Counted from the stretch's first letter, positions 29,515 to 52,241 are shown. The stretch: 64,000 nt of DNA from a phage (PZ445454.1), one strand, 5' to 3'. The notes: generated from the sequence alone by a model not told the origin. Program-made: numbers and translations.

Positions 29515-29742
29515 TCAGATGTCAATGCTAATACGTTCACCCTTAAGGACTCCTGTACGGTCCCTTGCAATCTTACCGTCAACAATAAGGATATGTGCAG
29601 ACCTTAAAGATTCGCCATTAAAAGCTTTTACGAACTTACAAGGCATTACCACAATAGACATCTCCTGAATCAACTCTGGAGTATAGCAATTGTCGTGAAG
29701 TTGCTGAATAACGTCTGCAAGTGTCATTTTTGATGTCTCCAA
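29515..29742 (-). CDS. hypothetical protein
   Basis: 75-aa ORF in co-directional array. Confidence 0.4.
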   Translation of the reverse strand: METSKMTLADVIQQLHDNCYTPELIQEMSIVVMPCKFVKAFNGESLRSAHILIVDGKIARDRTGVLKGERISIDI

Positions 29743-29933
29743 TACTCAATATCAATAAGTTCTTGTGCAATACTTTTCAGATTACCTTTCAAGAAAACCT
29801 TCTCAGAACCTGAAAGAGATGAATTGTCAATTAGCCTGTTCATTCTCTCAAACAACTTCTGCTTACGGTTCTTGATAGTTTCCTTTGAAGCACCTTTCAT
29901 CATCGCTGCATGGGTTCTTCCACGGTGGCTCAT
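29724..29933 (-). CDS. hypothetical small basic protein
   Basis: 69-aa ORF. Confidence 0.4.
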   Translation of the reverse strand: MSHRGRTHAAMMKGASKETIKNRKQKLFERMNRLIDNSSLSGSEKVFLKGNLKSIAQELIDIEYWRHQK

Positions 29934-29984
29934 AAGCCCTCCTATACAAGATATAGTATAAGGTACTCTTCCCTGAGCACCTTG

Positions 29985-30512
29985 TCAACTTAGTTTTGCA
30001 AACTCTCCGTGGAGTTTAATAGCAGCTTCACAGTAAGCTTTATGGGCTTCTTCAGGTGTGTCATAGTAGCCTAATGACATCTTTTTACCTTTATAGCTTA
30101 TTTGCGCAAGCCACCTACCAGACTTCTTCTTCAGGCTTACACCCTTATAGCCTGATTTATTGGTAGATAGTTTGCTTTTATTCCAAGCACTTTGGCAGTC
30201 ATCTGCTTCTCTTAAGTTTACAACCCTGTTATCAAGGGAGTCCCCATTAATATGGTCGATAACACCTCTCGGTAGCCTACCATACACGTACAGCCATGCG
30301 AGTCTGTGTGCTTTATGTGCTTTCTTGTCAAAATAGATAGTAATCTGCTTATGACCAGTTGAGTCAATCTGGATGCTCCCCGCTACCTGTCCTGCGTACT
30401 TACTATTAAAGACTTTAACAGCCCTTGAGTCACCCTCTCTACGAAGCCAAGTAAAGACCCCTGTTTCGGGGTCATAGTGTAGTAGCTCCTTTAAACGTTC
30501 TTGTGTAATCAT
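29985..30512 (-). CDS. HNH homing endonuclease with AP2-type DNA-binding domain (freestanding)
   Basis: HNH region HRLAWLYVYGRLPRGVIDHINGDSLDNRVVNLREA; AP2-like YKGVSLKKKSGRWLAQISYKGKKMSLGYYDTPEEAHKAY; start at MITQER overlapping DNA polymerase stop. Confidence 0.65.
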   Translation of the reverse strand: MITQERLKELLHYDPETGVFTWLRREGDSRAVKVFNSKYAGQVAGSIQIDSTGHKQITIYFDKKAHKAHRLAWLYVYGRLPRGVIDHINGDSLDNRVVNLREADDCQSAWNKSKLSTNKSGYKGVSLKKKSGRWLAQISYKGKKMSLGYYDTPEEAHKAYCEAAIKLHGEFAKLS

Positions 30513-30551
30513 TTTGTCACCATTAATGCACTTCCAACCACGATTTACCAA
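29985..30551 (-). mobile_element. freestanding homing-endonuclease gene inserted at 3' end of DNA polymerase gene
   Basis: HNH-AP2 ORF abutting and overlapping polymerase gene end. Confidence 0.5.
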
Positions 30552-33252
30552 CCTTGCCAGTACCAGTTACCAGTGTTTCACTCTTTAGTCCTAAGTTCTT
30601 AGAGGCTTGCCCGTAATACCAATCAGTGACAGCCTTCACCTCTGCCGTCATACTTTCTGGGCATTCCCAACTCGTCTCGTCGTGATAGGAGCACAATAAA
30701 CGAGCACCTATAGCTGGTTTGCGACCGTTCAACTTCATCAAACCTTCGTCAATCATACGACGGCAAGCAAGGTTAATTGCCTCGTTCTGAATCTGACTTT
30801 CCGAACCCATGAGCAAATAATTCAATAACTTATGTGGAGATTTACACCACAACCAAGCTCCAGCAACCTTTACAAAACCCCCTTTAGAGATTGCAGCAGT
30901 CTTACCAAACACCTCTTCAAGTGCCTTTTTAGTTGCTTTGTAGTCAGCTTCCAAGTCATCTAACAGCTTCTTAATTTTAGGTAAACGAATAAAGTAAGTC
31001 TGTTTAGTCAGTGCGCCTTCCTGAGTAGTTGCAGCTTTAATCGTCTTAGCAAACTTCTCATCCCCTGCACCGAACAGTAGTGCATAGATACCATTCTTAG
31101 CTTTCTTACGACCTTTGCTAATCTCATGAAGAAGACTCTCATCCTGAGTAGCTCGACAAGTCAAGATGTCCTGCTCATCATTCAAGCTAAAGTAAATACT
31201 GTTCAGGGTGTGTGCATCAGTCCCTGAATAGACAACGTACAGGTCATTCTCAGAGTCATAGTGAAGGTACTTATCAATCTCTGGGTTGAGATACTCATCG
31301 AAGTGTTTGCAGTAATAGCGTCCATCTTCTTGACGAGTAAACTCAATTTCTTCTTTACCTTGCGTTACCGCTTTGGTGAAATCTTTATCACCCATAAAGT
31401 TACAAAGAAGAACTAACTGGGCTGAGTTCATGTCTACAGAGACAACGTTAGTACCTTCCTCACAAATCCACACTGCCCTCATTGGTTCCCCATAGACAGC
31501 AGCACCAGACGGTACGTTTACAATACCATATTGTGTCATACGTCCAGTTGAAGTACCAAACACCATTGCACCAGCACTAAGGCGACCATCAGGACGAATC
31601 TGGTTCAACCAACCTTTTTCATCATCCTTTGAGTTCTCAATAGTTCTGCGTCTGTGCATCAAAGTGTAGTATTTCGCAATCTTCTGTCCAAGCTCACCTT
31701 CAATCGTATCATAAGATGATTCAGTAAGTTTTGGTGAAGTACGGATTAAGCAAGGCTCAAGCAAATCTGTGTACTTCTTCACAGACCAGTTATGCTCAAT
31801 GTACTGTACACCTTCATGTTCAACATAACTCAAGCCACACCGCTCAACCATTTCCTGCCACTTAGGATGTTTTGTAATCATCTTTTTATTGTCTTTGAAA
31901 CGACAAACTTTGACAGGGCGACCATCAGAGTCTTTCTTGTAGTTCCAGTCATCTGGAATCCAACCAACTGATTTCAAGTAGTCTTTAACAACTGCTACCT
32001 GAGTCATACGAGAAACTTCAAACTCAATTGGTGTATACGGTGCATCAATCAAACCTGTGTAGCGACTTGACTCAAGTTCAAAGTGGTTAACAACGTGACT
32101 GTTATAATACTTCACAGTTTTAACTGTTTTTACTGGCTTCCAATCTTTGCATTTCTTACCCATCTTTGCATTCAACTCATTGCAAATTGCACGAGCATCC
32201 TTCATTGCTACAAAACCTTCCTTGTACTCTTCACCAGTTACAGTGTTGGTTGGTGTATAGCAATTCCTTTTTTCAATGTTAAAAATCTTTGTAGTTGGCT
32301 TACCAAATGGCTTGATTTCATATGTTTGCATCTCACCATTACGTACCTGCTGACGATACTTTGTCTTAGGGTACTTGGTAATTCTTTTCAGTCCATCTGC
32401 ATGACCAAATGTTTCAACATACTCATTCCAAGCTTTTGCAAACTCTTCTCCAGTGACTTTACCTTTGGTCTTAATAGTTGGAGGAAGATGTGGTTCAACC
32501 TCTGAAGCAAGCTCATTAGTCAACTTGTCAAGTTCCTTTACATGGAACTCCATAAGCTCTTTATCAGCTTTCCAACCATTAATAGCTTGTTGACTCATCC
32601 AGAAAGATGTTTCTTTAGCTCGCATGTAGGTTTCATAAGTATCTATACCACACTTCTTAAGCTTGAGATATTCATTATCAAGTGCCCGTTTAGTTTTGGC
32701 GTTAATACGAATATCTTCTACAACACGAGTGAAGATTTCTGCATTCCACACACCCCAATGCTCAATCTCTGGTTTACGAACACCAACACGAGCACCCCAT
32801 GCAGCCAAACCATGAGCACCTTTATAACCCTTTGGAGTTGGTCTATCCATCCACTGAACACGAGACTGGATAAGAGAGTCCTGAAAGAAATTACTCCACG
32901 GTTTACACTTTGGATTATCAAAGTTCCATAAATCCGGTGCAATGTGATTGAAAACCCACCAGTCATAACCGAGGCCATTATGGATACAAAGACGTTTTGC
33001 CTTTAACGCAAACTCAATACCTTCACGTAAACCACCCTTAATGTACTTAGTGTACTTGTGACCGAGGATAGGCTCATCTGTAAAGACCCATACAGGCGGC
33101 TCTTCATCGTCAGATTTATAGTCTGCAAAGGCCATTACGTGAACTTTAGTGAACTCAAGGAGTAAACCATCAGTTTCTGTATCACCAACCAAATGTAAGT
33201 TTTTAAAATCTACGTTTTCCATTTTTACTCCCTCTAAAACCATTAACCTCAT
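30523..33252 (-). CDS. DNA polymerase, family A, with 3'-5' exonuclease domain
   Basis: Exo I DTETDG; motif A-like VSVDMNSAQLVLL; motif B-like KAKNGIYALLFGAG; motif C-like YHDE; 909 aa. Confidence 0.8.
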   Translation of the reverse strand: MRLMVLEGVKMENVDFKNLHLVGDTETDGLLLEFTKVHVMAFADYKSDDEEPPVWVFTDEPILGHKYTKYIKGGLREGIEFALKAKRLCIHNGLGYDWWVFNHIAPDLWNFDNPKCKPWSNFFQDSLIQSRVQWMDRPTPKGYKGAHGLAAWGARVGVRKPEIEHWGVWNAEIFTRVVEDIRINAKTKRALDNEYLKLKKCGIDTYETYMRAKETSFWMSQQAINGWKADKELMEFHVKELDKLTNELASEVEPHLPPTIKTKGKVTGEEFAKAWNEYVETFGHADGLKRITKYPKTKYRQQVRNGEMQTYEIKPFGKPTTKIFNIEKRNCYTPTNTVTGEEYKEGFVAMKDARAICNELNAKMGKKCKDWKPVKTVKTVKYYNSHVVNHFELESSRYTGLIDAPYTPIEFEVSRMTQVAVVKDYLKSVGWIPDDWNYKKDSDGRPVKVCRFKDNKKMITKHPKWQEMVERCGLSYVEHEGVQYIEHNWSVKKYTDLLEPCLIRTSPKLTESSYDTIEGELGQKIAKYYTLMHRRRTIENSKDDEKGWLNQIRPDGRLSAGAMVFGTSTGRMTQYGIVNVPSGAAVYGEPMRAVWICEEGTNVVSVDMNSAQLVLLCNFMGDKDFTKAVTQGKEEIEFTRQEDGRYYCKHFDEYLNPEIDKYLHYDSENDLYVVYSGTDAHTLNSIYFSLNDEQDILTCRATQDESLLHEISKGRKKAKNGIYALLFGAGDEKFAKTIKAATTQEGALTKQTYFIRLPKIKKLLDDLEADYKATKKALEEVFGKTAAISKGGFVKVAGAWLWCKSPHKLLNYLLMGSESQIQNEAINLACRRMIDEGLMKLNGRKPAIGARLLCSYHDETSWECPESMTAEVKAVTDWYYGQASKNLGLKSETLVTGTGKVGKSWLEVH

Positions 33253-39090: not shown

Positions 39091-40131
39091 ATGGAGAAGT
39101 ACACATTAACAAAGCTTCCCGATTCAGTTACACATGTCTTTATTGACTCTGACAGCATTGCCTATAAAGGTGCTTGTGTAGTTGAGAAAGCAAAGTATAA
39201 ATACGTTAATAAACTCACAGCAGAAGAATCTGAACCATTTGATAATGCGAAAGATGCTGCAAGATGGTTAGCAGACCAGAGAATCCTTGTGGAAGAGCTT
39301 GGCCTGACATTTGATGAAGATGAATGGGAAAGACAAACTTGGAAAGAAGCTAAGAGTGAAAAAGAAGCTATCATGGCTACTCAACAGGTTCTTCAGGAAT
39401 GGCTTAAGGTTGTTGGTAAAGAAAGAACTTGGGTGGGTTATTTAACAGAGAAAGGTGTGCATAAACATAAAGACATTAAAGGTCTTGAGCACCAATATCA
39501 AGGTAACCGTAAAGATGCTGTCACACCAACACACTTAGTCGCTTGTCGTGAATACCTTTTATCCAGACCAGAGTTCAAGCTCTTAAAGGGAGGCTTCGAA
39601 GCCGATTCAATCGTAATTGCTAAAGCTGAAAAGATGGGTAAGAAGGCTGCTCTTATGAGTATTGACAAAGACCTTCGACAAGCTGAAGGAACTTATTGTA
39701 TTGATATGACTTATGAAAAATCACCACTAATCTTTATTGCTGATAATAATGTTGGTGATATCTGGGATTGTCCTATCAAATCAAAACCAAAAGCTGCAAA
39801 AACAGTTGGTGTAGGTTTTAAATTCTTGTGCTATCAGGCTGTTGCTGGAGATAATGCAGACAACTACTTTGGCCTTAAAGGTGCTGGTAAAGTAGCTGTG
39901 ATGAATGCTTTAGATGGCAAAGAGACATACAAAGAGTGTCTTGATGCTATCTATGAACTCTATGCTAAAAAAGACTCTTACACCTATGTATCATGGGATG
40001 GACAGACAGTTACAAAGACACCGTTAGAGTTAATGGAACAGCATTTCTGGATAGCTTATCAAGAAAGAAATCCAAAAGATAATTTCTCTTTTAAGAAATA
40101 TAATTGGGAGCCACGTATGAATGAAGATTAA
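39091..40131 (+). CDS. 5'-3' exonuclease / RNase H (FEN family)
   Basis: FEN-like acidic clusters HVFIDSDSIAYKG and EADSIVIAKAE...SIDKDL; VAGDNADNYFGLKGAGKV helix-3-turn-helix-like region; polymerase lacks 5' nuclease domain. Confidence 0.5.
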   Translation: MEKYTLTKLPDSVTHVFIDSDSIAYKGACVVEKAKYKYVNKLTAEESEPFDNAKDAARWLADQRILVEELGLTFDEDEWERQTWKEAKSEKEAIMATQQVLQEWLKVVGKERTWVGYLTEKGVHKHKDIKGLEHQYQGNRKDAVTPTHLVACREYLLSRPEFKLLKGGFEADSIVIAKAEKMGKKAALMSIDKDLRQAEGTYCIDMTYEKSPLIFIADNNVGDIWDCPIKSKPKAAKTVGVGFKFLCYQAVAGDNADNYFGLKGAGKVAVMNALDGKETYKECLDAIYELYAKKDSYTYVSWDGQTVTKTPLELMEQHFWIAYQERNPKDNFSFKKYNWEPRMNED

Positions 40132-40618
40132 AGGATTTGGCAATTGCCCCACCTATGGTCATTGGGTATCTTTATGTGGGGAAGTTGACCCCACTAAACA
40201 TTTTGGTTTTGTCTATTTAGTACACTGTAAGAAAACCGGACAATATTATATCGGAAAGAAACAGCTTAATAGTGTGACTAAAAGAAAAGTTGCTGGCAAG
40301 ACTCGGAAGAAGGTAGTCACTAAGGAGAGTGATTGGATGACTTATGAAACTTCTTCTGAGTATATTAAAAAAGATATTGAGAGCTTTGGAAAAGAATTTT
40401 TTGACTTTTACATTATTCAGACCTACTACACGAAAGGTGGCCTAGTTTATGGTGAAGCAAACCTCCAACATAAATTCGATGTAATGACAAAAAGGATTGA
40501 CTCTAAGCTCAGACTCTTCTACAATGCCAATATTGCAGCAATTAAGTTTATCACTAAAGAAACTTATGAAGATGCTGAAAAAAGAATCCATAAGGTAATG
40601 AAAGCAAACTGCGCTTGA
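40121..40618 (+). CDS. GIY-YIG-like nuclease domain protein
   Basis: FGFVYLVHCKKTGQYYIGKK matches GIY-x10-YIG spacing. Confidence 0.4.
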   Translation: MKIKGFGNCPTYGHWVSLCGEVDPTKHFGFVYLVHCKKTGQYYIGKKQLNSVTKRKVAGKTRKKVVTKESDWMTYETSSEYIKKDIESFGKEFFDFYIIQTYYTKGGLVYGEANLQHKFDVMTKRIDSKLRLFYNANIAAIKFITKETYEDAEKRIHKVMKANCA

Positions 40619-46407: not shown

Positions 46408-47604
46408 ATGAACAAAGTACAGATTATTAAAAAGAATGGCTCACTCGAAGAACCTGATATCAAAAAAGTTTTAGCAGCAGTCACAAAGTCAGCTAATAGG
46501 GTTGGGTATAGAGAACTCCCACCAGATGTTACCCAAGCTCTTGAGTCAGCATTTATGAGGATTCTGGTAAAATCCACTAAGCAGAATAACTTGCTCATCT
46601 CGGTAAATGATATCCACAGTATCGTTGAAGGTGCTTTGGCAGAAGTCAATCACGAGATTTATGAGTCTTACTCAACATACAGAAATTACCGTAAAGAGGT
46701 TGCTCAAAATTGGGATGAACTCTACCAGAAGACTAAAGATACACTCTTCTTAGGTGACCGTGAAAATGCTAACTTTGACAGTAGTTTAATTTCTACGAAA
46801 GGTTCAATTATCCGTGGTTACCTGACTAAAGAAATCTTTAAACAGTATCATCTAACACCAGAGGAACTTGAAGCCATTGAGAAAGGCTTTATCTATATCC
46901 ACGATTTGAGAGACCTGATTTTTGGTGGTATTAACTGTTGCCTGTTTGACATTGGTAAAGTCCTGAAAGGTGGCTTTGAAATGTCTGGCATCGAATATTG
47001 TGAACCAAAGTCTGTGCTGTCGGCCTTACAGGTTATTGGTGACGTAGTTCTTTCAGCAACTGCACAGCAATTTGGTGGCTTTACTTTAGCAGAGATTGAT
47101 AAGGTACTTGTGCCGTATGCTAAGAAGTCTCTACGCTACCATGCTGAGAAAGCAGCATCTTATGGTATTCCTAAAGAACATTACCATAATTATGTCATGG
47201 AGCAGCTACAGCTTGAATTGACTCAAGGTTTTCAATCACTTGAAATGAAACTAAACACTGTACCTTGTAGCCGTGGGGATTTTGCATTCACAACTTTGAC
47301 ATTTGGTTTACTTGACTCAGATATGTCTAATGAAGACAACCGGCTACAATACATGATTGCAAGTACTCTCCTAGATGTTCGTATGAATGGACAAGGTAAG
47401 AGCAAGAAGCCTGTTGTATTCCCTAAACTGGTTTATATCTATGACCAGAAGAGACATGATGAAAATATCTGTCAAGGTCACCTGTACAGTAAAGCCATTG
47501 AGTGCTGCTCTAAAGCAATGTATCCAGATTTCTTAAGTGTATCTGGTCATGGTGCTGTAGCAGAGGCTTTTGAGCGTTCTGGTAAGGTTATTTCACCGAT
47601 GGGT
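46408..47604 (+). CDS. nrdD: anaerobic ribonucleoside-triphosphate reductase, exon 1
   Basis: N-terminal ATP-cone; ORF ends ...VISPMG then stop; joins in frame to exon 2 giving SPMG-CRAFL. Confidence 0.65.
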
Positions 47605-48346
47605 TAACAGGCTCTATAGCTCATCTAAAACGTGCCTAAACAGGGAAACTCTACAGATGTAGACAATCCTGTGCTAAATGATGTAAGATGTAAGAAACTA
47701 TATAACATAGGAGTATTACATGCCAAATTATCATGTTACTGAAGACGGAAGAGTCTTTAGAGAAAATGGTGTAGAGCTTACACAGTGGAAATCCAACACT
47801 GGGTATATGAAAGTAAAGTTTTACGGTAAGAAGAATCGTGACATGTATGTCCATAGGTTAGTTGCTGAGAAATATGTACCTAACCCAAACAATCTTCCAA
47901 TTGTAAAACACAAAGATGATAACAAACTGAACAACCATGCTTCTAACTTAGAATGGGGAACTCATTCTGAGAATGTTAAAGAAGGTTATGAGAACGGTTG
48001 CTACAAGTTTTGTAAGCGTTCATATGCTGTGAAGGCTACACACAAAGTGACAAAAGAAGTTATTGCTGCCAAGTCAATACGAGAGTTATCCAATATACTC
48101 GGATATAATCGCAAGACTATCTCTTCAATATTGAAGGGTGTAAAAGAGCATAATAACTTTGAACATGAATTTGAATACATCTAAATGCCGAACGACTAAC
48201 CGTGATGAATGTAGCGGTGTAGGGTCAAGCGACTCGAAATGGTACGCTACTTAGAAATAAGTAGAAGATATAGTCTGGACTTACTGGTGACAGTAAGCAG
48301 CTTGGATAAAGCGGGGTAAGCGTAGCGAACTTGCCTGAACAACAAG
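47605..48346 (+). mobile_element. group I intron (candidate) interrupting nrdD, carrying HNH endonuclease ORF
   Basis: 5' exon ends in T; 3' part has short helices with GNRA-like loops (ctactt-agaaat-aagtag; ttactg-gtga-cagtaa), P7-like gact/agtc elements and terminal G before exon 2; boundaries approximate. Confidence 0.6.
47720..48184 (+). CDS. HNH homing endonuclease (intron-encoded)
   Basis: NUMOD4-like YHVTEDGRVF; HNH region HRLVAEKYVPNPNNLPIVKHKDDNKLNNHASNLEWGTHSEN; C-terminal HTH-like SIRELSNILGYNRKTISSILKG; RBS AGGAG. Confidence 0.65.
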   Translation: MPNYHVTEDGRVFRENGVELTQWKSNTGYMKVKFYGKKNRDMYVHRLVAEKYVPNPNNLPIVKHKDDNKLNNHASNLEWGTHSENVKEGYENGCYKFCKRSYAVKATHKVTKEVIAAKSIRELSNILGYNRKTISSILKGVKEHNNFEHEFEYI

Positions 48347-49294
48347 TGTAGAGCATTTTTATCACCATACCATAACGAAGATGGTGAAGAGTTTTATGTA
48401 GGTCGTGCTAACATTGGTGCTGTGTCTTTGAACTTACCAATGATTTACCAGTATTCTAAAGAGAATGGTTTAGATTTCTGGAAAGAGCTTGATAAGTACC
48501 TAGAGATGATTCGTAGTTTCCACAAGAAACGCTATGAAATGATTGCCAATATGCCAGCAAGTTCTAACCCTCTTGCATTTACACAAGGTGGTCTGTACAA
48601 AGGAACTAAGAAGCCTACTGACAGGGTTGGTTGGGATATTGTGAAGTCCTTCACAGCTTCTTTTGGGGTTACTGCGCTTGATGAGCTATCTGTTCTTGCT
48701 GAAGGTAAACGACTTCATGAAGTTGGAAGTTATAGTTTTGCATATGATGTTCTGGCATACATCAACATGAAAACTGAAGAGTTTAAAAATGAAGATGGCT
48801 TCTTATATGCCGTCTATGGTACTCCAGCAGAATCACTTTGTGGAACTCAGCTAAAACAGTTCAGAGAAATGTTTGGTGTTATCAAAGGTGTTTCTGATAA
48901 GGAATATTTTACAAACAGTTTCCATATGAATGTTGCAGCAGACATCTCACCATTTGAGAAGCAGGACTTAGAAGAACCATTCTTCCATATCTGTAGAGGT
49001 GGCAGAATCCAGTATGTAAGGGTAGCTAACCCAGAAAACTTAACAGCACTTAAAAGTTGTATTACAAGAGGGATGTTGAAAGGTTTTTATCAGGGACTTA
49101 ACTTTGACTTAGCAATCTGTGAACATTGTGGTAACAGACCAAAGGCTGATGTCGAAGAATGTGAGGTTTGCCATTCACATGATATCTCTGTGATTAACAG
49201 GGTGTGCGGATATCTGGGATGGACTAAGATTAAAGGTGAATCCCGAATGAATGATGCAAAAATCGCTGAGATTCGTGACAGGATTTCTATGTAA
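48347..49294 (+). CDS. nrdD: anaerobic ribonucleoside-triphosphate reductase, exon 2
   Basis: glycyl-radical motif RVCGYLG near C-terminus; zinc-ribbon cysteines CEHCG...CEVCHS; frame open from about 48347. Confidence 0.65.
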   Translation, partial: CRAFLSPYHNEDGEEFYVGRANIGAVSLNLPMIYQYSKENGLDFWKELDKYLEMIRSFHKKRYEMIANMPASSNPLAFTQGGLYKGTKKPTDRVGWDIVKSFTASFGVTALDELSVLAEGKRLHEVGSYSFAYDVLAYINMKTEEFKNEDGFLYAVYGTPAESLCGTQLKQFREMFGVIKGVSDKEYFTNSFHMNVAADISPFEKQDLEEPFFHICRGGRIQYVRVANPENLTALKSCITRGMLKGFYQGLNFDLAICEHCGNRPKADVEECEVCHSHDISVINRVCGYLGWTKIKGESRMNDAKIAEIRDRISM

Positions 49295-51725: not shown

Positions 51726-52241
51726 ATGTATCTGTCAAACCTAAAACGTTCTGCTGCAATGTCAGTGCTAAGACTCAGCTTTGAGGAACGTCAAGAGTTC
51801 ATTGACTCCCACCAATACGACCCTTCTAACTCCAATCACATGATTCTCTGGAATCGTGGCAGTACTCGTGAAAGAGCACTATTCCGTTACTACCCGCATT
51901 ACACCATAGATAACCTGTATGAGTGTTTTGTTGTGAAGAACACCATTACAGTACTCAATAAACTTTGCAGATACACAGGTAGTCAATCCTTCACATTAGG
52001 CCACCACAAACCTGTTACAAAGGGTGGTGAGCATCACTGTGCAAACTGGTTTATCCAGACTAAACTTGATAACCAGAAGCAAGGGGATAACCTTCTAAGC
52101 ACACCTAAGATGACCTATGAAGAGCAAGAGAAATATATCAAAAATAATATGCCAGGTGTGCTTGACAACAACTATACAGATTTGGCAATATCTCTCCTGT
52201 TGAAGTTCGAGACAGTTTATAGGGCAACTTACAATGGCTAA
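51726..52241 (+). CDS. HNH-like nuclease (candidate)
   Basis: LGHHKPVTKGGEHHCANWFIQTKLDNQKQGDN fits an HNH-type core. Confidence 0.35.
   Translation: MYLSNLKRSAAMSVLRLSFEERQEFIDSHQYDPSNSNHMILWNRGSTRERALFRYYPHYTIDNLYECFVVKNTITVLNKLCRYTGSQSFTLGHHKPVTKGGEHHCANWFIQTKLDNQKQGDNLLSTPKMTYEEQEKYIKNNMPGVLDNNYTDLAISLLLKFETVYRATYNG

Follow-up and report, generated by a model that had tools for sequence, protein, structure and literature searches.

Does the small gene that directly follows the DNA polymerase gene of this phage represent a mobile endonuclease gene, and, if so, what keeps it and its relatives at this one position? The window, by which we mean the whole stretch of 64,000 nucleotides that was analysed (PZ445454.1), comes from a Felix O1-like myophage of the Felixounavirus group, and the 4.6-kb segment around the gene was 88–96% identical to 173 Felixounavirus records (≥80% of its length). 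A previous interpretation made from the DNA alone (hereafter, the sequence-only reading) had described an HNH plus AP2 open reading frame (ORF) at 29985–30551 that starts within the last codons of a family A polymerase gene, and had proposed a freestanding homing endonuclease gene (HEG). The genes and domains concerned are as follows.

29724–29933, minus strand: small conserved gene (phrog_5180), the right-hand flank of the slot, 92–100% identical in relatives regardless of HEG status
29985–30512, minus strand: freestanding HNH-AP2 endonuclease gene of the allele A lineage, 175 aa plus stop (maximal ORF to TTG 30551)
30006–30155, minus strand: AP2 DNA-binding domain (residues 120–169)
30180–30314, minus strand: HNH (His-Me finger) core with D86-H87, N99, S108, and N111 (Pfam HNH_3 at residues 67–103)
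30517–30521, minus strand: GGTGA, Shine-Dalgarno-like as read from the sequence, 4 nt before ATG 30512 in the 10-nt spacer between polymerase and HEG
30523–33252, minus strand: family A DNA polymerase gene, 909 aa (Pfam DNA_pol_A, E = 2e-14; phrog_17, E = 6e-113)

Both domains proposed for the ORF were recovered, with matches to Pfam HNH_3 (E = 6.8e-14) and AP2 (E = 2.1e-13) above the respective gathering cut-offs and to phrog_99 'HNH endonuclease' (E = 2e-73), and the adjoining gene was indeed that of a family A polymerase. The AlphaFold model of the 175-aa protein, obtained with a 47-sequence alignment, was confident (pLDDT 94); the significant HNH_3 profile match was accompanied by a beta-beta-alpha fold like that of I-HmuI, and the AP2 match by a three-stranded sheet packed on a C-terminal helix. 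The product is thus a predicted nuclease, an I-HmuI-like HNH domain fused to an AP2 domain. Endonucleases that combine HNH with AP2 are known from phages, cyanobacteria, and ciliates, and their recognition in phages dates from 2004 (Magnani et al. 2004, as cited in PMC10448857). The His-Me finger classification places HNH_3/AP2 proteins alongside I-HmuI in its group 2 ('HNH_3 / I-HmuI'; PMC5714182). The window gene shares with the phage HNH-AP2 homing endonucleases an N-terminal HNH_3 domain, a C-terminal AP2 domain, and a small, freestanding, phage-borne gene. It is a known kind of element that is already annotated in relatives: GenBank labels the 95–99% identical genes as HNH homing endonucleases, and the window gene, too, is correctly read as a mobile HNH-AP2 endonuclease. 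A compositional anomaly was considered and rejected, the GC content being 42.4% in the HEG, 41.1% in the polymerase gene, and 39.2% in the window.

The frame at 29985–30551 (minus strand, 188 aa from TTG 30551) was the longest possible reading in the ORF listing. The true start is probably ATG 30512 (MITQERLKELL..., 175 aa), located 10 nt beyond the polymerase TAA (30523–30525), rather than the polymerase-overlapping TTG 30551. This start was preferred because the 528-nt CDS annotated in near-identical relatives (dune_61, 98.9% identical) corresponds to it, the family alignments open at it, and the sister lineages start no more than six codons from the RLKELL motif. The two genes therefore abut, as the sequence-only reading had stated, but the overlap that it described is probably absent. 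The GGTG of the spacer was retained in lineages A75 and C. A scan for sigma-70-like promoters on the minus strand from the polymerase body to the HEG gave no call.

The slot itself is delimited by two further features.

29960–29988, minus strand: conserved intergenic element, consisting of TTGACA (29983–29988, which holds the HEG stop TGA) and the 9-bp inverted repeat AAGGTGCTC/GAGTACCTT
29985–30053, minus strand: constant 3' module, the last ~70 nt of the HEG (ending in EEAHKAYCEAAIKLHGEFAKLS and the stop), nearly identical in all slot lineages

An artificial empty-site query, in which 29515–29984 was joined to 30523–31000, was run against the phage collection. It spanned ~945 nt in relatives without an insert, ~1460–1486 nt in those with an endonuclease gene, and ~1165 nt in those with an unrelated extra small ORF further downstream. 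The HEG-less junction read pol...TGG CTT GAR GTW CAC TAA-TTAGTA-TTGACAAGGTGCTC..., followed by the phrog_5180 gene; thus, the conserved intergenic element lies 6 nt after the polymerase stop (pol-TAA-TTAGTA-TTGACAAGG) in the empty sites, which were clean and held no HEG remnants. The insert in the window, of ~538 bp, sits precisely between the polymerase stop and TTGACA, the endonuclease TGA stop lying inside the latter. When the last 75 nt of the gene were used as a query, one copy each was found in 140 phage records at ≥90% identity, including Felix O1. Since 261 records matched the region, about half of the sequenced relatives carry an HEG in the slot (~140/261), and the slot is empty in ~46%. 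This comparison of polymerase 3' regions is the one that the sequence-only reading had recommended, with universal presence of the gene at this position and no insertion polymorphism as the outcome that would speak against homing; the relatives gave the opposite outcome, because the gene is an insertion polymorphism among them. Presence or absence at a fixed site among close relatives, with clean empty sites, is what is expected of a homing gene.

The intergenic element may be an operator, a processing site, or a phage-specific promoter. The sigma-70 scan made no call for TTGACA on account of a poor −10. In LF110P2 (L007), ZX4221 (L008), and L020/L021, an extra ORF of ~220 bp (MTLSEIEVQLQ...) was located between this element and the phrog_5180 gene, corresponding to ~29934–29958 in the window, and resembled the phrog_4230 gene further downstream (29515–29742).

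The occupied slots, drawn from GenBank and IMG/VR loci, held at least four HNH-AP2 lineages that were 39–56% identical to each other and occurred in Felixounavirus and Mooglevirus.

Lineage A: that of the window, with sub-lineages at ~95%, 86%, 75% (Mooglevirus Sf13), and 61% (Erwinia Kolesnikvirus Omen); ~61 records
Lineage B: heid, Si3, and Michonne; 48% identical to A; start overlapping the polymerase stop by 1 nt (ATGA); ~49 records
Lineage C: L023 and L026; 50–56% identical to A
Lineage E: Felix O1 ORF218; 47–51% identical to A; overlapping the polymerase end by ~17–19 nt

Lineage A was also present in Kolesnikvirus, and the slot position is thus common to three genera. Felix O1 ORF218 is an HNH-AP2 member in the identical polymerase slot. 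Backbones that were 95–100% identical to the window across the polymerase body carried allele A, allele B, or no HEG.

A position common to three genera might suggest a vertically inherited accessory gene, ancestral to Ounavirinae and repeatedly lost without any mobility of its own, and the shared 3' end could likewise reflect common ancestry. This explanation was already disfavoured, and we regard it as highly improbable in view of the clean, remnant-free empty sites, of lineages that are only 39–56% identical yet sit in 95–100% identical backbones, and of the HEG being 94–98% identical where the adjacent polymerase DNA is 70–73% identical. The HEGs of heid and Si3 were 97.9% identical, as against 73.4% in the last 900 nt of the polymerase gene, and the corresponding values were 94.5 and 70.4% for heid and L034 and 86.6 and 74.8% for the window and ph2-2. 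A gene closer than its flanks and incongruent with the backbone is the pattern of horizontal spread expected for a homing gene. The excess of HEG over flank identity was stronger in allele B, which has the canonical Asn in its active site (see below), than in allele A, and allele A sublineages tended to keep their own polymerase 3' haplotypes. The domain architecture, the position next to the polymerase gene, and the insertion polymorphism expected under the sequence-only reading were thereby borne out: HEG-less relatives have a clean empty site, several lineages occupy exactly the same point in others, and identity in the gene often greatly exceeds that in the flanking DNA.

The final 22 residues (DTPEEAHKAYCEAAIKLHGEFAKLS) were common to all slot lineages, and the remaining gene DNA had little similarity between lineages. 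The simplest reading of the shared last ~70 nt is repeated lineage replacement with the downstream crossover inside the HEG 3' end. On the other side of the gene, a divergent flank was linked to HEG status.

30523–30860, minus strand: last ~300 nt of the polymerase gene, with an identity gradient against HEG-less relatives

Compared with HEG-less relatives, the window was 95–100% identical in the polymerase body, 92, 85, 83, 83, and 77% identical stepwise toward the stop, and 92–100% identical directly downstream of the slot. The changes in the flank were mostly synonymous (34–39 synonymous versus 3–6 non-synonymous codons per 120). Polymerase codon −4 was CTT in 17 HEG-less loci, with L029 (TAT) and the Erwinia-type L032/L033 (TTG) as exceptions, and all HEG-bearing loci had TTG (A and C) or TAT/TAC (B, E, and some A) there. 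For the final His codon, CAC was seen in all HEG-less loci examined and CAT in most HEG-bearing ones. The flank divergence and the codon −4 pattern would be the expected trace of target-site immunity and co-conversion, and we infer from these polymorphism patterns a target site near the polymerase 3' end, with the qualification that the gradient and the codon −4 association are seen alongside the exceptions (L029 and the Erwinia-type loci) and a confounding insertion inside the polymerase gene of some relatives.

That insertion, of ~800 nt, was observed in L036, L038 (Si3), and L039, where it splits the polymerase after residue 724 (window ~31080, ~555 nt upstream of the stop) and accounts for the two polymerase CDSs annotated in several GenBank relatives. 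It holds a 160-aa Cys-rich ORF and could be an intron or a second endonuclease gene; the window polymerase is uninterrupted. The insertion may contribute to the flank divergence or mosaicism. In the HEG-less L029 (IMGVR_UViG_2706796270_000001), the polymerase ends in WYEVH with the TAT codon, as in HEG lineages B and E, which makes it a candidate HEG-loss or cleavage-resistant empty allele. In another HEG-less locus, L004 (MET-P1-301), an in-frame polymerase stop ~120 codons before the end has led to annotation in pieces, with sequencing error or a pseudogene as possible causes.

Overall, a freestanding HNH_3/I-HmuI-like plus AP2 homing endonuclease gene in a fixed slot between the polymerase stop and the conserved intergenic element is the likely explanation of the locus. 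In the proposed course of events, co-infection of an HEG-bearing phage with an HEG-less or other-allele relative would allow the protein to bind the recipient DNA via its N-terminal and AP2 modules; the endonuclease would then nick or cut near the polymerase 3' end or the junction, and recombination repair would transfer the gene to the recipient along with as much as a few hundred nucleotides from the 3' part of the polymerase gene. Phages that carry the HEG would be protected by the substitutions observed just before the polymerase stop (CTT to TTG or TAT; CAC to CAT), and lineage-by-lineage replacement would resolve within the shared last 70 nt. The HEG is probably co-transcribed with the polymerase gene.

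The same polymorphisms also bear on whether the main role of the enzyme is interference competition (marker exclusion) between co-infecting phages, over simple invasion of empty sites. It would then cut the polymerase 3' alleles of other HEG lineages as well as empty ones, in the manner of I-HmuI and I-HmuII in SPO1/SP82, to the advantage of the polymerase allele linked to it. The presence of at least four lineages in one slot, each with distinctive polymerase 3'-end codons, agrees with such a role, and alleles that replaced one another repeatedly, with resolution inside the HEG, would be consistent with the common last 70 nt. Precedents include HNH intron endonucleases competing in polymerase genes and T2/T4 marker exclusion (PMC2988022), as well as an intron endonuclease that mediates interference competition (PMC11620839). 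This role is, however, compatible with ordinary homing rather than exclusive of it, and empty sites are common (~46% of records), so that targets for plain homing exist; we consider it rather unlikely to be the main one.

Our reserve on the homing explanation stems mainly from the active site of lineage A. The family profile, aligned to I-HmuI, placed D86-H87, N99, and position 108 on I-HmuI D74-H75, N87, and N96, with the family 'QN' falling on N96; a single-sequence phmmer search against the PDB did not retrieve I-HmuI, and the profile search did. D86-H87 and N99, corresponding to the acidic residue, the general-base His, and the structural Asn of the canonical site, did not vary within the 47-sequence alignment or among the slot lineages. 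The canonical site further has Asn or His in the first turn of the helix, where this residue directly binds the catalytic metal (PMC5714182), and there S108 (codon 30189–30191, minus strand) replaces the metal-binding Asn. In a 125-sequence alignment, position 108 was Ser (QSAWN) in 13/13 lineage A sequences (including the window, ph2-2, Sf13, Omen, and P0001–P0008) and Asn in 112/112 non-A homologs, lineage B included; lineages C and E also have Asn. The window lineage thus differs from the known HNH-AP2 enzymes at this position, and the activity could be reduced, altered, or lost.

Within lineage A, D86, H87, N99, and N111 were invariant down to 61% identity, and pairwise dN/dS ratios of 0.10–0.19 within lineage A and 0.00–0.28 within lineage B showed that the proteins are under purifying selection. 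Water-mediated or alternative metal ligands are documented in His-Me fingers (PMC5714182), and the invariant N111, three residues after S108, could contribute to metal binding. Given the invariance of the other motif residues and the purifying selection, we think that lineage A keeps activity in some form, perhaps weaker or nicking only. Its homology to the HNH_3 nucleases is secure, and canonical catalysis is in doubt.

These data equally concern the possibility that the allele A protein derives from an HEG but has been repurposed or has impaired catalysis. It would then bind specific DNA sequences through its N-terminal module and AP2, be maintained because it regulates or protects, for instance by target-site occupancy or autorepression, and spread only by linkage and ordinary recombination. 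Ser108 in every allele A sequence examined, as against Asn in the 112 other homologs, is what such a derivative might show; the purifying selection indicates some function but not which, each allele A sublineage tends to be found with a polymerase 3' haplotype of its own, and AP2 domains have been recruited elsewhere as transcription factors (Magnani 2004, as cited in PMC10448857). However, the invariance of D86-H87, N99, and N111 to 61% identity would be unexpected once catalysis was lost, backbones that are nearly identical may have or lack the gene, the identity of the HEG still exceeds that of its flank (86.6% versus 74.8%), and the alternative ligands known in His-Me fingers (PMC5714182) offer a way around the missing Asn. 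We therefore judge a repurposed binder to be quite unlikely and continue to prefer homing by an active, possibly modified, endonuclease.

A further peculiarity of the gene lies near its 5' end.

30456–30473, minus strand: inverted repeat GACCCC-GAAACA-GGGGTC at the HEG 5' end, covering codons D14 P15 .. G18 V19, flagged as terminator-like by the terminator scan

The hairpin was predicted in both the MFE and the centroid RNA folds. Perfect 6-bp stems were found in 22/22 slot HEGs of all lineages, including those of Felix O1 and Erwinia Omen, with varying loops (GAAACA, GATACA, GAAATA, TTAACG, TTAACA, and GACAAA) and varying neighbouring codons, and 6/6 stem pairing occurred in 0/60 distant family members with the same YDPxxG motif. 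A family-wide codon habit was accordingly rejected as an explanation. The codons involved are largely rare in the long ORFs of the window (CCC, 3.5% of Pro; GGG, 7.6% of Gly; GTC, 11.9% of Val; and GAC, 38% of Asp), with a joint probability of 1.2e-4 for the rare codons of the hairpin, and the window holds a single copy of the sequence. In an exact scan of IMG/VR, nearly all occurrences of the hairpin were in Ounavirinae HEGs, and those in a few other HEG groups were approximately as many as expected by chance. The paralogous HNH-AP2 gene dune_50 (42% identical protein), which is located in another slot of phage dune, shares the 36-nt hairpin block at 35/36 positions. Specificity to the polymerase slot was rejected for this reason, and the element belongs to the Ounavirinae HEG group instead. 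The RNA fold z-score of the surrounding 126-nt region (−0.15) gave no evidence for a larger structured RNA, and the Rfam search of 29700–30700 gave no match for the hairpin region. Conservation of the stem in variable surroundings points to selection at the nucleotide level. By analogy with T4 mobE and segF, the hairpin may be a weak internal terminator, with a U-tract that is weak and poorly conserved across lineages, and the HEG dose would probably be limited by it as in those genes.

The best precedent is offered by T4, in which mobE and segF each contain an intrinsic terminator at the 5' end of the coding sequence (PMC2988022). The mobE gene is located immediately after nrdA, whose end its start overlaps; ~30% of the transcripts end at the terminator within mobE, and the next gene is served by a promoter beyond it (PMC2988022). 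The mobE enzyme nicks DNA, and in relatives its locus is taken over by other HEGs (PMC2988022). Work on T4 further describes freestanding HEGs, co-conversion, marker exclusion, and ATGA-type coupling (PMC2988022). The window gene resembles mobE and segF in its location between two conserved genes, in a start that abuts or overlaps the upstream stop (ATGA in allele B and UAAUGA in mobE), and in the GC-rich, terminator-like 5' hairpin. TTGACA at its 3' end, which is not called by the sigma-70 scan, stands where mobE has its downstream middle promoter. Unlike mobE and segF, it belongs to another HNH subfamily with another DNA-binding module, and the slot hairpin, with its weak and poorly conserved U-tract, is a putative terminator.

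The Bacillus phage enzymes I-HmuI, I-HmuII, and I-BasI are nicking HNH enzymes encoded in group I introns inside the DNA polymerase gene and have helix-turn-helix/NUMOD C-terminal modules, whereas the window gene is freestanding after the polymerase stop, carries an AP2 module, and lies in a region (29700–30700) without any Rfam match at E ≤ 1. The polymerase stop, moreover, is unmoved in HEG-less relatives. The IPA-HNH HEGs and 'HEG-islands' of ICP1-like phages likewise combine HNH with AP2, and 29% of these genes adjoin DNA polymerase genes (Barth, Dunham & Seed 2023, PMC10448857). In these phages, cognate HEGs at one location can be swapped for other HEGs, and nuclease genes bound genetic exchange (PMC10448857). 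By definition, the HNH domains of the IPA-HNH group have diverged beyond the reach of the Pfam HNH_3 profile (PMC10448857), which sets apart the window protein with its HNH_3 match well above threshold. More generally, HEGs are concentrated beside polymerase genes, where one can take the place of another at a single site, and HNH plus AP2 is a recognised architecture (PMC10448857; PMC5714182). According to papers on Felixounavirus, the number of homing endonucleases varies, and Felix O1 has six (PMC8300805). What goes beyond this known kind of element is the slot with its several lineages, together with the Ser108 clade and the hairpin.

These details might be combined in a more specific proposal, namely that the Ounavirinae slot is a 'cassette frame', composed of an immune-type polymerase 3' end, a cis-acting rare-codon hairpin, and the constant last 70 nt, in which HNH-AP2 bodies are exchanged by endonuclease-driven allele replacement, and that the Ser108 lineage is an active-site variant with altered chemistry. 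The hairpin may act in such a frame as, for example, an attenuator of polymerase read-through or a protein-binding palindrome, and the altered chemistry may be obligate nicking or a changed metal dependence that is still compatible with spread. We offer this combination tentatively, as something possible rather than probable.

Regardless of this proposal, the locus provides a natural experiment: across ~260 sequenced coliphages and Salmonella phages that are close relatives and easy to grow, one site is either empty or holds one of at least four rival lineages. To our knowledge, no AP2-type HNH enzyme has a mapped target in Felixounavirus-type phages, and a literature search found no cleavage or homing data for any HEG of the Ounavirinae clade; the defined multi-lineage slot makes homing, allele replacement, and marker exclusion by such enzymes directly testable. 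Two small but specific leads also emerge, the Ser-for-Asn clade for catalysis and the conserved hairpin with its rare codons for the control of endonuclease expression. The mosaic polymerase 3' end is an unsuitable phylogenetic marker in Felixounavirus. Copies of the HEG with 85% identity were also found in Felixounavirus sequence under the GenBank records MG065668.1 and MG065664.1 ('Campylobacter phage A126/A132') and one Staphylococcus-labelled record, which are probably mislabelled or mixed assemblies.

The gene had also been counted as one of at least four nuclease-like ORFs in the window, and this count held for two of the other three. No paralog of the endonuclease gene was found within the window by tblastn (E ≤ 1), and the other nuclease ORFs are thus not its close relatives.

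40121–40618, plus strand: SegE-type GIY-YIG endonuclease ORF, after a 5'-3' exonuclease gene
46408–49294, plus strand: nrdD (anaerobic ribonucleotide reductase), in two ORFs (46408–47607 and 48422–49294)
47720–48184, plus strand: ORF with HNH_3 and a sub-threshold NUMOD1 match (E = 0.008), between the two nrdD halves
51726–52241, plus strand: ORF that had been called HNH-like

The last of these had no Pfam match at E ≤ 0.01, and its positional counterpart in phage dune (dune_32) is annotated as hypothetical. Between the 5'-3' exonuclease and GIY-YIG genes, phage dune has the extra HNH-AP2 gene dune_50 (L122, 31092–31607), which is not in the window, so that this second slot is also polymorphic; wV8 (L143) retains only a truncated 38-aa remnant of a dune_50-type gene. 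The nrdD gene, which is in two ORFs in the window, is a single 2145-nt gene in phage dune.
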